IMG/VR virus record: IMGVR_UViG_3300014205_000175
Span: 128,001-192,000 of that record
Reading direction: 5' to 3' (one strand)
Length of the DNA: 64,000 nt
From: a virus
Lineage: Duplodnaviria > Caudoviricetes
The translations under genes were made by a program, and so were the position numbers. The notes beneath the pieces were generated by a model that was not told the origin of the DNA, ran no database searches, and was given only the letters and a program-made list of their open reading frames with translations. Shown here piece after piece: positions 23,040 to 26,975 of the stretch. The first letter of the stretch is position 1. Each line of letters starts with the position of its first letter.

Positions 23040-23712
23040 GAAGCCTGTTCCGGTTACCCCCGAAGAACAAGACATCGCTTTGGTGCGTAAAGACCCTCAT
23101 GCACTAAAGCATCTCAGCAGCCAAACTCCTGCTGTGTGTTTGGCTGCAGTGCGTCAGAACGGACTGACTCTCATGTACGTCAAGGAACAAACGCCTGAGA
23201 TCTGCATGGCAGCGATCAAAGAAGAACCAGCAGCGTTGCGTTATGTGCATGAACAAACCCTGGAGCTTTGCCTAGAAGCGGTCGCGACCAATCCTTCGAT
23301 AGTCGTCTATGTGAACAACCCGACCGAAGAGTTCTGGACGAAGGCTCTCAAGCGTGACGGCATGCTGCTGAAATTCGCACCTCTGCAGTTTCATCGACTG
23401 AGTCTGATCGCCGTACAGCAAAACGGCCTGACACTGAAGTTCGTCCGACAGCAAACCCCGGAGATCTGTAAGGCAGCAGTCGAACAAAACTCTTTCGCCC
23501 TGCGATACGTCCGTGACCAAACCTACGAGTTATGCCTCTCGGCTGCGCTCCGTAGTCCGTACGTGTTGGAGATGATAAATGAGGAAGAAATCTATGAGCA
23601 GGTCTGTAAAGCTATCCACGATAACAAAACCACTGCTAACGTACGATCTGTCATCGTTGAGCAACACACACAACTCTACTTAAACCCTAGGAACCATCTA
23701 TGCGAGTGTTGA
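23026..23712 (+). CDS. DUF4116 repeat protein
   Basis: Repeats QTPEIC(L)AAVxQNGxAL(R/K)YV. Confidence 0.85.
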   Translation: MCSPKKPVPVTPEEQDIALVRKDPHALKHLSSQTPAVCLAAVRQNGLTLMYVKEQTPEICMAAIKEEPAALRYVHEQTLELCLEAVATNPSIVVYVNNPTEEFWTKALKRDGMLLKFAPLQFHRLSLIAVQQNGLTLKFVRQQTPEICKAAVEQNSFALRYVRDQTYELCLSAALRSPYVLEMINEEEIYEQVCKAIHDNKTTANVRSVIVEQHTQLYLNPRNHLCEC

Positions 23713-24470
23713 ACAAATACAAGGACGCCAAAAGCTGGACTACGGTCTATATCGGTAGGGGCTCGGTGTTTGGTAACCCTTACGTCATCGGTGAACACGG
23801 CACGCGTGAAGCCGTCATCGCGATGTACGACAAATGGCTGACGAACAAAATCCTTCAGCGTGACGTCATAATGCTGGGTGCTTTGAGGCAACTCACCAAA
23901 GATTCGGACCTGATGTGTTTTTGTAAACCGGTACCGTGTCACGGTGATGTCATCCAACGCATCTGGGAGGAGATCAGTAGTCACGAGACATGGGATGCTG
24001 GCGTGGATGCTTTTATCGCTCGTCACGGTAAAAACTACCTGCCCGTTAACGATGGGGTCGATCACATCAACGTTTATAGCCGCGGCAACACCGAGCTCGG
24101 ACGCTGGTTATCTAACTTTGCCCGCGCACCGTTCATACACCCCCTATACGGGGTTTTCGAGAGCATCGAAGGGTTCTGGTACTGGCTCGGTACTGGTAAG
24201 AGTGTAGAGGCTCTAAGAGGCACTCACGGGCTAGCGGCTAAACGTCTCGGTAAACAATACCTCAAAGTCCCGTGTGACAATTTCGAAGAAGAGATCCGTC
24301 AAGCCATCACCTATAAGCTAGAGCAACATCCGCAATATCTGAAGATGTTGCGCGAGAGCTCGTTGCCACTGGCTCATTACTATTACTACGGTGAGCCTGA
24401 AAACTGCAAGATTATCACTATGCCTCAGTTCGATTGGATCATCGAACACCTAGAACACCAGCGTGTTTAA
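23700..24470 (+). CDS. DUF4326 domain fused to a NADAR-like domain
   Basis: VYIGRGSVFGNPY...DLMCFCKPVPCHGDV (DUF4326); DGVDHINVYSRGNTELGRWLSNF...FESIEGFWYW...KLEQHP (NADAR-like, inferred). Confidence 0.75.
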   Translation: MRVLNKYKDAKSWTTVYIGRGSVFGNPYVIGEHGTREAVIAMYDKWLTNKILQRDVIMLGALRQLTKDSDLMCFCKPVPCHGDVIQRIWEEISSHETWDAGVDAFIARHGKNYLPVNDGVDHINVYSRGNTELGRWLSNFARAPFIHPLYGVFESIEGFWYWLGTGKSVEALRGTHGLAAKRLGKQYLKVPCDNFEEEIRQAITYKLEQHPQYLKMLRESSLPLAHYYYYGEPENCKIITMPQFDWIIEHLEHQRV

Positions 24471-24526
24471 GGCACTTCCCTCTTCTCCCTACCTGGCAGA
24501 TGCCGGTAGGGAGAAGAGAGGGTGCT

Positions 24527-24994
24527 TTATTTTTTGCTATCGGAATGAAACTGCTGCTCCACTGATGCTGCGATGTTGGACTTACGTCGGTTTTCTTCAT
24601 CGGCTGAGCGATTGAGCATATCGACAACATCAACCGGCATCTCCAAGTATTCGGCGATGCTTAGTCCATAGATCTCACGGATGTTTTTGGCGATGTAGAT
24701 ACGCAGTATCGTCTCCATGAGACTGCCATCATTGGGATTTTCAACATCATGAAATGCAACACTCGATAGTGGTTTGGCGATTGCTTGTTTGAAATGGTTG
24801 TGTACACCATACTCGACATCATAAGCACTACCCAACACAATAGCGCTATCGACGGCATTGAGTTTGGGTAGCTTCTTGAACATCTCACCGATAAAGCTGT
24901 ACCAGTCTACATCCAGTCCGAAACCTGGTACAGCGATATGACGTCCACTCAGCGAGTCGCTATTCTCTGAATTCGCTGAGTGATGAGGCCGAAA
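24527..24994 (-). CDS. -1 frame ORF, probably expressed as a frameshift extension of the gp77-like protein (fusion about 651 aa)
   Basis: Frame is open from the slippery site to TAA. The first ATG (24883) is about 37 codons inside and has no properly spaced SD. Confidence 0.7.
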   Translation of the reverse strand, partial: FRPHHSANSENSDSLSGRHIAVPGFGLDVDWYSFIGEMFKKLPKLNAVDSAIVLGSAYDVEYGVHNHFKQAIAKPLSSVAFHDVENPNDGSLMETILRIYIAKNIREIYGLSIAEYLEMPVDVVDMLNRSADEENRRKSNIAASVEQQFHSDSKK

Positions 24995-24997
24995 AAA
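24946..24997 (-). promoter_or_regulatory. -1 programmed ribosomal frameshift signal
   Basis: In-frame heptamer T TTT TTC (24997-24991), 8-nt spacer, perfect 10-bp stem cactcagcga/tcgctgagtg (24982-24946). Confidence 0.75.
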
Positions 24998-26481
24998 AGC
25001 TGGATCACATCCAACGGGATGATGTTAACAAATGCATCATTGATGGTGTTTTCTTTTTGCTCCGTATGACATACCGGGCAGTCGTAAGTAGGAATGCCAA
25101 CTACTGCCAGCGTGCTATCATTGATATACTTGACCACGGCTTCAATGAACTTTTCACGCACCCGATCATCTGCCGACATCACATCCAGCGTCATCTCGAT
25201 GGTTTCGCGATCATCGATGACGTTGCTATCGAGTTCGATCGATTCGATCCAGTGGGCATACTGGCGCATTGAAGTAGCCTGCGCATACCGTTGGATGATG
25301 AGGTTACGTTCTTCATCATTGGCAGTAGTATTGATGCTCGTAGTGATCTTATCAACGATGCCAGAAATCCAACGATGGCCTTCGTTGACATACTGCGTGA
25401 CCGTCGGCGATTTGAGAGTGACATGTAGCTCTGAATCTGTGAACGCATCCGAGAGTGAGACACGACGGTTTTTCAGTCCTAGCATCTCATCCCGGTACTT
25501 CTTCACGCTACTGAGATCACGACCGAACGGTTGACGCAGTGCCATGTGAGATTTCTGCCACTCAGTTAGAGCATTGCTGTTGGTCCACAGTAGTTTACTC
25601 AGATTCAGCCGTTCCTCAACGACGTGGTTGCATTTTTCTGGATTGGTCAGACAGCCACGTTGGTACTGAAAGCCTTTCGGGTACATCGTACAAGCAAAAC
25701 CCCACACCAGTGTGAATAGATCTTGCACTGCGATATGGTCCCGGATATTCGAAATCGGCAGTTCCTCGTTACGTACCGTAGTGGTGTAGATATGCGAAGC
25801 GATGAAATCCATCAGGTAATCGACAGTGTAGCTCGTCGTATTCGAATACACCAGACCGTAGGTGAAACGACCCATGCGGATTTTCTCCGACACCAGTAGT
25901 CGGTTAAGCTCGATGATCTCAGCTTCAGTGGGTGGTTTGAGCGTAACCCAAATACCGCTATGCCATAGCGGCACTTGGAACGTCGTGCCCAACCCCAGCT
26001 GACGAATCACCCTCAGTACCGCTCGCTCGCCTTTGAGGTTCTCGTTTTCCGTCTGTTTGATCTTGGGTGCCTGAGCACTATAACGCTGACCGTTAAAGTC
26101 CACTGATTGTTTGTAAAGAGCGCTGACGTTTTCCATGGTAGGCACGAAAGCCTTGGCAAACGTATTATACTCTAGGCCACCAGCCACTACATCAGCCCAT
26201 TTACGCGAATCGGGATTATCGAGTAGGTTGATATTAGGAGTATCTTCGAGAAGCTGACGAGCTACCGAGTCCAGATTAGACGGCAGAGGTAGCGTGAGAT
26301 CATTGTCATCCCAGTTTGTCGCTGTACTGACAGCTTCCTCTTGCACTGCTTTATGGCGGATCGGTACAGATTTATCTTCTTCGACTGCTATCTCAGGTTC
26401 TACTTGAGGCACCGGGCTCTCATAGACTTCATCGGTTTCAACCGTATTTTCTACTTCGCTAGCACAGCTTTCTTGATTCAT
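24949..26481 (-). CDS. phiKZ gp77-like conserved protein (candidate tail/baseplate assembly chaperone)
   Basis: 510 aa; QVPLWHSGIWVTLKPP, CLTNPEKC, CPVC, ends IIPLDVIQLFF; synteny. Confidence 0.7.
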   Translation of the reverse strand: MNQESCASEVENTVETDEVYESPVPQVEPEIAVEEDKSVPIRHKAVQEEAVSTATNWDDNDLTLPLPSNLDSVARQLLEDTPNINLLDNPDSRKWADVVAGGLEYNTFAKAFVPTMENVSALYKQSVDFNGQRYSAQAPKIKQTENENLKGERAVLRVIRQLGLGTTFQVPLWHSGIWVTLKPPTEAEIIELNRLLVSEKIRMGRFTYGLVYSNTTSYTVDYLMDFIASHIYTTTVRNEELPISNIRDHIAVQDLFTLVWGFACTMYPKGFQYQRGCLTNPEKCNHVVEERLNLSKLLWTNSNALTEWQKSHMALRQPFGRDLSSVKKYRDEMLGLKNRRVSLSDAFTDSELHVTLKSPTVTQYVNEGHRWISGIVDKITTSINTTANDEERNLIIQRYAQATSMRQYAHWIESIELDSNVIDDRETIEMTLDVMSADDRVREKFIEAVVKYINDSTLAVVGIPTYDCPVCHTEQKENTINDAFVNIIPLDVIQLFFGLITQRIQRIATR

Positions 26482-26975
26482 TTGGGTTCTCCGGATTTGG
26501 AACGGTTGATAGCTTCCATCGCCATGTCAGTGATAGACAGCACAGTTTGGAAACTCAGGGATTTGAAGTTATCGAAAAACTCGGTATAAAGACCATAGAT
26601 GCTAAAGGCCGCAGCGAGCTCATCTTCGGTAGTGATATTACCGCTACGTTGGCTATGCATCGCGTGGATGGCGATGAGTTGATTAGTAAAGAGATCAATG
26701 TCACGCTTAAAACCATCGACCGCCACGCGGAACTCGGAGGGGTTAGTTACGTAGTTCATCAGGTTCGGGTAGTTAACGAGTTCGGTGACGGAACTCAGCG
26801 TCTCGTAGATCCCGGTGGCGCATTTCTGATACAGGTCTTCGAGTTCACTCCAGGACTGCGATAGGTCCTGGCGCGGAGCAGTGCCACGGTAGGTATCACT
26901 AATAGCTGCTGCAGTTGTTTTGGCAACAGGGATGACAGCTTTCTTCGCTGCCGGTTTAAGGGTTTTGCTAACCAT
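26478..26975 (-). CDS. Conserved hypothetical protein (gp78-like position)
   Basis: 165 aa, GGAG RBS, overlaps the next gene by 4 nt. Confidence 0.7.
   Translation of the reverse strand: MVSKTLKPAAKKAVIPVAKTTAAAISDTYRGTAPRQDLSQSWSELEDLYQKCATGIYETLSSVTELVNYPNLMNYVTNPSEFRVAVDGFKRDIDLFTNQLIAIHAMHSQRSGNITTEDELAAAFSIYGLYTEFFDNFKSLSFQTVLSITDMAMEAINRSKSGEPK

Follow-up and report, generated by a model that had tools for sequence, protein, structure and literature searches.

Introduction

In phage lambda, the genes for the tail assembly chaperones G and GT reportedly contain a conserved −1 frameshift site (G GGA AAG), which Xu, Hendrix and Duda are said to have described in 2004, and the E/E+E′ genes of phage P2 reportedly use a frameshift at the heptamer T TTT TTG, an arrangement attributed to Christie et al. 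in 2002. In Escherichia coli dnaX, which yields tau and gamma, the shift takes place at A AAA AAG with an upstream Shine-Dalgarno (SD) sequence and a downstream hairpin, stimulators that are both conserved and required, and it truncates the protein. Here we analyze a candidate −1 frameshift site near the 3′ end of a phiKZ gp77-like gene in 64,000 nucleotides (nt) of viral DNA (Duplodnaviria; Caudoviricetes), positions 128,001 to 192,000 of the IMG/VR record IMGVR_UViG_3300014205_000175, a stretch that we call the window. An earlier note, made from the letters of the window, had proposed that slippage at this site gives a G/GT-like pair of proteins. From comparison of the window with its relatives, we put the probability of a conserved recoding event at the gp77 site at about 0.9.

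The locus shares several features with lambda G/GT and with P2. A presumed morphogenesis gene carries the heptamer close to its 3′ end, the frame-0 stop follows soon after the heptamer, and a −1 open reading frame (ORF) of about 150 amino acids (aa), which has no start of its own, would form the C-terminal extension of a minor product. As in those systems, the site is kept despite divergence of the protein, often without a strong stimulatory structure, and the products appear to be non-virion proteins. The P2 heptamer is almost the same as that of the gp77-like gene, and three gp77 relatives use exactly TTTTTTG. As in dnaX, a bacterial −1 slip of tandem tRNAs would let one gene yield two products in fixed proportion, and the heptamer, 8-nt spacer and 10-bp hairpin of the window resemble the dnaX layout; unlike in dnaX, the shift would extend the protein and the hairpin is clade-specific.

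The gp77-like protein belongs to phrog_4585 (E = 1e-107), and a tblastn search found it in 242 phage records, all of them from jumbo phages (of Pseudomonas, Erwinia, Salmonella, Serratia, Klebsiella, Ralstonia, Vibrio and others). Its phiKZ counterpart, gp077, counts among the core genes that nucleus-forming jumbo phages share (as cg18) and is still listed as hypothetical (PMC10299810, supplement). We found no description of a gp77 frameshift in the searchable literature, most subscription journals lying outside that search. A real frameshift would mean that all genomes of the gp77 family are misannotated at this locus and that one core gene gives two products, whose ratio would probably be indispensable to the assembly of the tail or baseplate. 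The site would then give a model phage that is already under intense study a recoding event open to direct test, and it would be a clean example of a −1 frameshift preserved across very deep divergence with no conserved RNA stimulator.

Layout of the proposed frameshift site

All features of the frameshift locus lie on the minus strand. The gp77-like gene (26481 to 24949) encodes a frame-0 product of 510 aa and ends ...CAG CTT TTT TTC GGC CTC ... CGC TGA. As the earlier note had pointed out, it contains the heptamer T TTT TTC (24997-24991) in X XXY YYZ phase relative to frame 0, within the codons CTT TTT TTC for Leu494-Phe495-Phe496; this is the proposed site of the −1 shift. An 8-nt spacer (24990-24983) separates the heptamer from a perfect 10-bp stem-loop (24982-24946), whose arms CACTCAGCGA (24982-24973) and TCGCTGAGTG (24955-24946) enclose a loop of 17 nt and whose 3′ arm contains the frame-0 stop TGA (24951-24949). 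In the −1 frame, no stop interrupts the reading from 25024, which lies nine codons ahead of the heptamer, into the ORF at 24883-24527 and up to the stop TAA 24529-24527. Counted from the slip, the extension (24991 to 24527) comprises 154 codons and the stop; by its ORF, profile match and conservation it belongs to the phiKZ gp076.4/201phi2-1 gp135 family (phrog_12109). Its first ATG, GTG or TTG is the ATG at 24883-24881, 36 codons after the slip, and the start-less part before it reads PHHSANSENSDSLSGR. The sequence of the window bears out the spacer, the stem and the open, initially start-less −1 frame as the earlier note had described them, and also the predicted sizes of the two products, 510 aa in frame 0 and 496 + 154 = 650 aa for the fusion, the latter given before as about 651 aa.

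In the mechanism that we propose, the gp77-like mRNA would be decoded in two ways. Most ribosomes would read frame 0 and end at the TGA, releasing the 510-aa protein. A fraction of ribosomes would slip back by one base with two tRNAs on the TTT TTC of the heptamer, both tRNA-Phe re-pairing on UUU, and would resume in the −1 frame at CGG (24991-24989), reading 154 codons to the TAA and producing the 650-aa fusion. The small gene annotated downstream would accordingly be the C-terminal domain of the frameshift product, with no initiation of its own. We infer that the slippage is ribosomal rather than transcriptional and that the frame-0 product is the major form. The predicted junction tryptic peptide of the fusion ends ...IIPLDVIQLFFR, and its frame-0 counterpart ends ...IIPLDVIQLFFGLITQR.

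Heptamers of the form TTTTTTY are common in this DNA, with 52 occurrences on both strands of the window against 18.3 expected from shuffles; since the heptamer is so frequent, the reading of a single genome proves nothing, and the significance of the frameshift comes from conservation across relatives and not from the heptamer or the hairpin alone. T-rich terminators or intergenic regions are one possible source of the TTTTTTY excess.

Conservation of the site and of both reading frames

We gathered 58 loci from IMG/VR, 17 from GenBank and 6 contigs of close relatives; removal of identical junctions left 72 loci, which include phiKZ, 201phi2-1, PhiPA3, RSL2, Ea35-70, SPN3US-like phages, Vibrio phages and one Bacillus phage. 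A first set held 60 non-identical loci, and the other 12 came from distant clades and close relatives. Most loci stand at 23-45% protein identity, at which synonymous sites should be saturated. The earlier note had proposed aligning orthologs for conservation of the heptamer with its Phe-Phe codons, for the −1 relation of the two frames and for covariation in the stem. The −1 relation is kept throughout: each of the 72 loci has a −1 frame that stays open over about 150-184 codons from the shared Phe-Phe site, and the +1 frame at that site is usually short in the relatives compared.

The heptamer is likewise conserved. Its canonical form, T TTT TTN, occurs in 57 of the 72 relatives (TTTTTTC in 27, TTTTTTT in 26, TTTTTTG in 3 and TTTTTTA in 1). 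The P-site Phe codon is TTT in all 72, and the preceding codon has T as its third base in 60 of 72 loci, its commonest residue reaching only 35%; neighboring third positions reach at most 0.35-0.68 across the same loci. The A-site codon is TTC in 31 of 72, and several canonical sites hold only six T's (ACT TTT TTC). Among described phages, the site reads ACT TTT TTT in phiKZ and 201phi2-1, GTT TTT TTT in Ea35-70 and RSL2, GTT TTT TTC in the SPN3US-like JN03 and in phiEaH2, TAT TTT TTC and AGT TTT TTC in Vibrio phages, GGT TTT TTT in FBKp24 and GTT TTT TTA in the Bacillus phage AgentSmith.

When codon choice at the site was compared with the codon usage of each gene itself in the 60-locus set, TTT was observed 57 times against 17.3 expected and a T-ending preceding codon 45 times against 14.1 expected, and neither the TTT count nor the T-ending-codon count was reached in any of 200,000 simulations (0/200,000). 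Judged by codon usage, the synonymous positions of the slippery site are under selection. Phage T4 gp26, discussed below, serves as a control, because it keeps a C-terminal Phe-Phe that is coded TTC TTT and has no such extension; the amino acids alone do not, then, demand a T run.

Frame 0 is also maintained beyond the site. Its stop lies 8-17 codons past the Phe-Phe site in nearly all relatives, and the short tail after the site is conserved as [TI]L.GQ[KR]. To go by the aligned sequences, the frame-0 and −1 readings past the site are both under selection, and this, together with the conservation of frame 0 after the site, excludes sequencing error or gene decay. The geometry that the earlier note had drawn, in which a slip near the 3′ end is soon followed by the frame-0 stop and leads into an extension of about 150 aa, recurs among the relatives.

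The extension and its start codons

The −1 extensions of the 60 non-identical loci align well and share the motifs H-V..P.F-G, Y-E..[FY]-G-I..H and P-L..V. In the window, the match to the phrog_12109 profile begins 14 residues past the site, before ATG 24883, and a start at that ATG would yield 118 aa without the near-invariant Phe-Gly motif (F23 invariant, G24 in at least 90% of sequences). Across the 60 loci, the first ATG, GTG or TTG of the extension lies anywhere from 18 to 151 codons past the site. It falls after the near-invariant Phe (59/60) in 36 of 60 loci, and after a conserved Tyr (57/60) in phiKZ, AgentSmith, Ea35-70 and two further loci, L011 and L012, of which the former has no ATG, GTG or TTG for 151 of 154 codons and the latter none for 135 of 154. 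An SD-like sequence precedes the first start of the extension in 10% of loci, as against 75% for the starts of the gp77-like genes.

Genome records differ in what they make of this region, the annotated or called length of the downstream gene varying from about 75 to 158 aa. In phiKZ (NC_004629, 71442-73504), PHIKZ076.4 is annotated as a protein of 80 aa, and a gap of 218 nt after PHIKZ077 is left without annotation; no stop interrupts the −1 frame anywhere in this gap, which also holds the conserved residues. The central proposal of the earlier note, a programmed −1 frameshift, gains strong support from the conservation of the site and from the selection on its synonymous positions, and also from the extension, ahead of which neither a start codon nor an SD sequence is conserved.

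RNA structure around the site

The stem-loop that the earlier note had placed beside the heptamer is real in the window, and it is not a conserved stimulator, being kept in part of the window's own clade only. It folds with −17.3 kcal/mol (z −1.99), and 10 of 200 shuffles fold as well, which makes it marginal by itself. Its arms persist in about 8 of the 14 clade members and lie in doubly coding sequence that reads T-Q-R in frame 0, and the frame-0 R-stop codons read L-S in the −1 frame. The hairpin is absent in other clades, and RNAalifold applied to the phiKZ group kept only 4 pairs. It is possible that the 10-bp hairpin acts as a clade-specific stimulator. A clade of Psa21-like phages has a different, longer downstream hairpin (−18 to −24 kcal/mol), which encloses an ATG 18 codons past the site and shows one compensatory pair. 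From the frame-0 stop (24949) to the end of the extension, no terminator-like site was found.

Alternative explanations

The same fusion protein could also be made if the phage RNA polymerase (RNAP) added one U at the T run in some transcripts, given that the site is a homopolymer of 5-8 T, mostly 7 or 8, where insertion of a single U leads exactly into the −1 frame. In the window, moreover, a 7-bp stem (GTTGGAT/ATCCAGC, 25015-24999, minus strand) immediately precedes the T7 run and thereby resembles an intragenic intrinsic terminator, a layout that stimulates slippage in some insertion sequence (IS) elements, and the family has no conserved ribosomal stimulator to set against it. What favors the ribosome is that the constraint follows X XXY YYZ and not the length of the run, with the 5′ side fixed (the TTT in the P site and the T upstream of it) and the A site frequently TTC; canonical sites with only six T's are common, and PA1C has five T's. 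Runs of six or five T's are short for efficient slippage by bacterial RNAP, although phage RNAPs may differ. Nor is the stem that abuts the T7 run conserved (mean z −0.19), and it is absent even in the closest relative. On the comparative evidence, we regard transcriptional slippage as unlikely and −1 slippage by the ribosome as the probable mechanism. There might, on the other hand, be no recoding at all, if the downstream ORF were a separate gene with a weak or non-canonical start (ATG 24883, or CTG/ATC) or one reached by termination-reinitiation, and if the T run only reflected the Phe-Phe pair. Gene callers annotate separate genes everywhere, a TTG overlaps the stop in 201phi2-1 (TTGA), JN03 has an ATG where phiEaH2 has TTG, and the Psa21-like clade has a conserved ATG. 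Against this stand the lack of any conserved start position, the conserved residues that precede the first start in more than half of the 60 loci, the two loci that have essentially no start codon and the near absence of SD-like sequences; the type and distance of the stop also vary, the clade of the window having CTGA and never A/G/TTGA. The Phe-Phe pair alone, moreover, leaves both the invariant TTT and the T-ending preceding codon unexplained, and T4 codes the same pair differently. We consider a separate downstream gene highly improbable. Homopolymer runs are error-prone in some sequencing chemistries, and a sequencing error, or a recent frameshift mutation that splits one ordinary gene, might produce two overlapping frames; the same two-frame layout is, however, present in 72 independent assemblies and isolates, reference genomes included, frame 0 is conserved past the site up to its short tail, and no single-ORF version was found among the relatives searched, which leaves an artefact or gene decay with a negligible probability.

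Several observations nonetheless weigh against a programmed −1 frameshift or limit what the counts can carry. The loci are related by descent, so that the counts are not independent events. Fifteen of the 72 sites are non-canonical, with A/G TTT TTY or with T TTT followed by ATC, TCC or ACC. The stem covariation for which the earlier note had proposed to look is lacking in the window's clade, where differences in the hairpin are all mismatches and none is compensatory, and no downstream stimulatory structure is conserved family-wide (mean z of the downstream fold −0.6). An in-frame fused homologue, which would be independent proof of the fusion, was not found among the best 120 of 464 relatives, all of which measure 355-565 aa; a profile search with the extension for longer proteins also returned no fused homologue, in itself weak evidence. 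This absence fits a conserved frameshift that sets a ratio of products. Finally, the Psa21-like clade (L005, L047, L049, L053, L055 and L063) has the non-canonical site A TTT TTT, and its ATG at 18 codons past the site is conserved (MTRLSxDL); these phages may have switched to, or added, independent initiation. A 686-aa protein of phiEaH2 was considered as an in-frame fusion and rejected, its extra length lying at the N-terminus.

Predicted structure and possible function

An AlphaFold2 (AF2) model of the gp77-like protein, built with 42 sequences, has a predicted local distance difference test (pLDDT) score of 83.6 and a predicted template modeling (pTM) score of 0.83. In a Foldseek search of BFVD, the orthologues are followed by more than 15 targets of 220-310 aa that are named baseplate hub assembly chaperone, protein or subunit, with probability 1.0, E values of 1e-4 to 1e-2 and template modeling (TM) scores by target of about 0.5-0.58; these targets are themselves predicted models, and their membership in PF12322 is by name only. 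T4 gp26 and gp51 both belong to PF12322 (T4_baseplate), for which the NCBI family name is 'gp26 family baseplate hub assembly chaperone'. Both are listed as hub assembly chaperones by Leiman et al. (PMC3004832) and are, by the literature, assembly factors unseen in finished virions (PMC3004832). In addition to this similarity of predicted structures, the gp77-like protein shares with T4 gp26 a C-terminal CxxC ... Phe-Phe-x-L motif, T4 gp26 ending ...CPECGK...LKEFFELL. Unlike T4 gp26, gp77 is more than twice as long and has no Pfam match, and T4 gp26 for its part has no T run, frameshift or extension. T4 gene 26 (115802-116428) makes its second product, 26′, by internal initiation, and gene 25 comes next with a TAATG overlap.

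Sequence profiles do not confirm the resemblance to gp26 and gp51, and we therefore treat it as structural. In hhalign, the gp77 family matched T4 gp26 with a probability of 17.6% over 28 C-terminal columns and the gp26-family alignment with 5%; over T4 gp26, T4 gp51 and the gp26-family alignment the values range from 5 to 18%, which leaves the link unsupported at this level and counts against it. The model of the gp77-like protein found no convincing solved structure (best E 1.5 in Foldseek against the PDB, and values up to Z 5.5, at noise level, in a wider fold search). Neither part of the pair matches a Pfam family (E up to 0.1 for the window protein) or a PDB sequence, the weak and scattered Pfam matches of 42 relatives include no Phage_TAC family and no PF12322, and a DNA-level search of the phage collection returned no match.

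By published accounts, the protein appears to lie outside the virion. The Churi gp077 homologue is among the non-virion proteins at 15 min post infection (PMC11849849), gp136 and gp135 of 201phi2-1 carry no virion mass-spectrometry flag, unlike their neighbors, and the Goslar homologue gp081 is unmentioned in the text of the Goslar virion-structure preprint. A role for the gp77-like protein in morphogenesis, outside the virion and with a fold akin to that of the T4 gp26/gp51 hub assembly chaperones, is a tentative reading to which we give slightly less than even odds. The gp77 frameshift would in that case provide a handle on these poorly understood chaperones.

The model of the extension (pLDDT 79) is helical, with a long and very confident C-terminal helix. 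It gave no informative match, values in the fold search reaching Z 5.5 (MerR-type helices), at noise level, and complex prediction of the extension with the tail tube protein of the phage itself (L085:1480-2340:-) gave no support. On the model of G and GT, the minor form would gain from its helical extension an extra module for interaction or oligomerization. Small proteins of Tenacibaculum phage pT24 and Leptospira phage LE4 weakly resemble the extension (BFVD probability 0.84 and 0.54, respectively), and in both phages gp26-like proteins also matched the gp77-like model. In LE4, the UniProt accessions of the gp26-like and extension-like proteins are consecutive, which hints at adjacent genes. 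The two-part arrangement may reach beyond the chimalliviruses.

As for the G/GT-type pair that the earlier note had suggested, the part that holds is the frameshift near the 3′ end that would add a second domain. The homology does not follow from it, in view of the missing Pfam and PDB sequence matches, and the only fold match to a tail chaperone, the XkdN-type YqbN (3klu; Z 5.1, root-mean-square deviation 3.4, 89 of 119 residues on model positions 158-270), is at noise level. Unlike the lambda proteins, the gp77-like protein is 3-4 times larger (about 500 versus about 140 aa) and belongs to no tail-chaperone family by sequence. The gene also lies outside the place expected of a tail assembly chaperone (TAC) gene, between the tail tube and tape-measure genes; that position is ruled out by the neighbors of the gp77-like gene and by its distance from the tail tube gene, about 75 kb on the 202,826-base IMG/VR record, and the phiKZ genome has its tube gene gp30 at 22 kb, as against 72 kb for gp77. 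It is still reasonable to liken the gp77 pair to an assembly chaperone that frameshifting produces in two forms, an analogy that stops short of identity with lambda G/GT.

In a more far-reaching proposal, the gp77 pair would do for giant contractile tails what G and GT do for other tails: a gp26/gp51-type chaperone that shares ancestry with tail chaperones through a YqbN-like core would use the helical domain added by frameshifting to bring in tube or tape-measure subunits at a low and fixed stoichiometry. We think this unlikely. If true, it would tie the unexplained T4 gp26 and gp51 to the tail-chaperone paradigm and explain why phiKZ-like phages seem to be without a G/GT pair.

Genomic neighborhood

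Upstream of the gp77-like gene, on the same minus strand, lies a gp78-like ORF of 165 aa (26478 to 26975), whose PHROG matches have no known function and whose stop overlaps the start of the gp77-like gene as ATGA. The same neighbor is found in phiKZ, PhiPA3, 201phi2-1, RSL2 and AgentSmith, and the gp78-like ORF is probably the first gene of the gp77-like operon. At the other end, a strong terminator-like hairpin (24468 to 24529; −41.4 kcal/mol, z −7.97) follows directly after the stop of the extension. The ATGA overlap and this hairpin together indicate a single transcription unit that runs from the gp78-like gene through the gp77-like gene to the end of the extension. Beyond the hairpin, a 256-aa ORF on the plus strand (23700-24470) matches phrog_464, phrog_652 and phrog_11222; standing between this gene and the convergent extension ORF, the hairpin is probably a bidirectional terminator. 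Taken more widely, the gp77-like gene has gp78-like and gp79-like genes and a virion RNAP subunit gene on one side and a DUF4326-type gene on the other, and a DUF4326 gene also adjoins the locus in three relatives (L079, L080 and L083).

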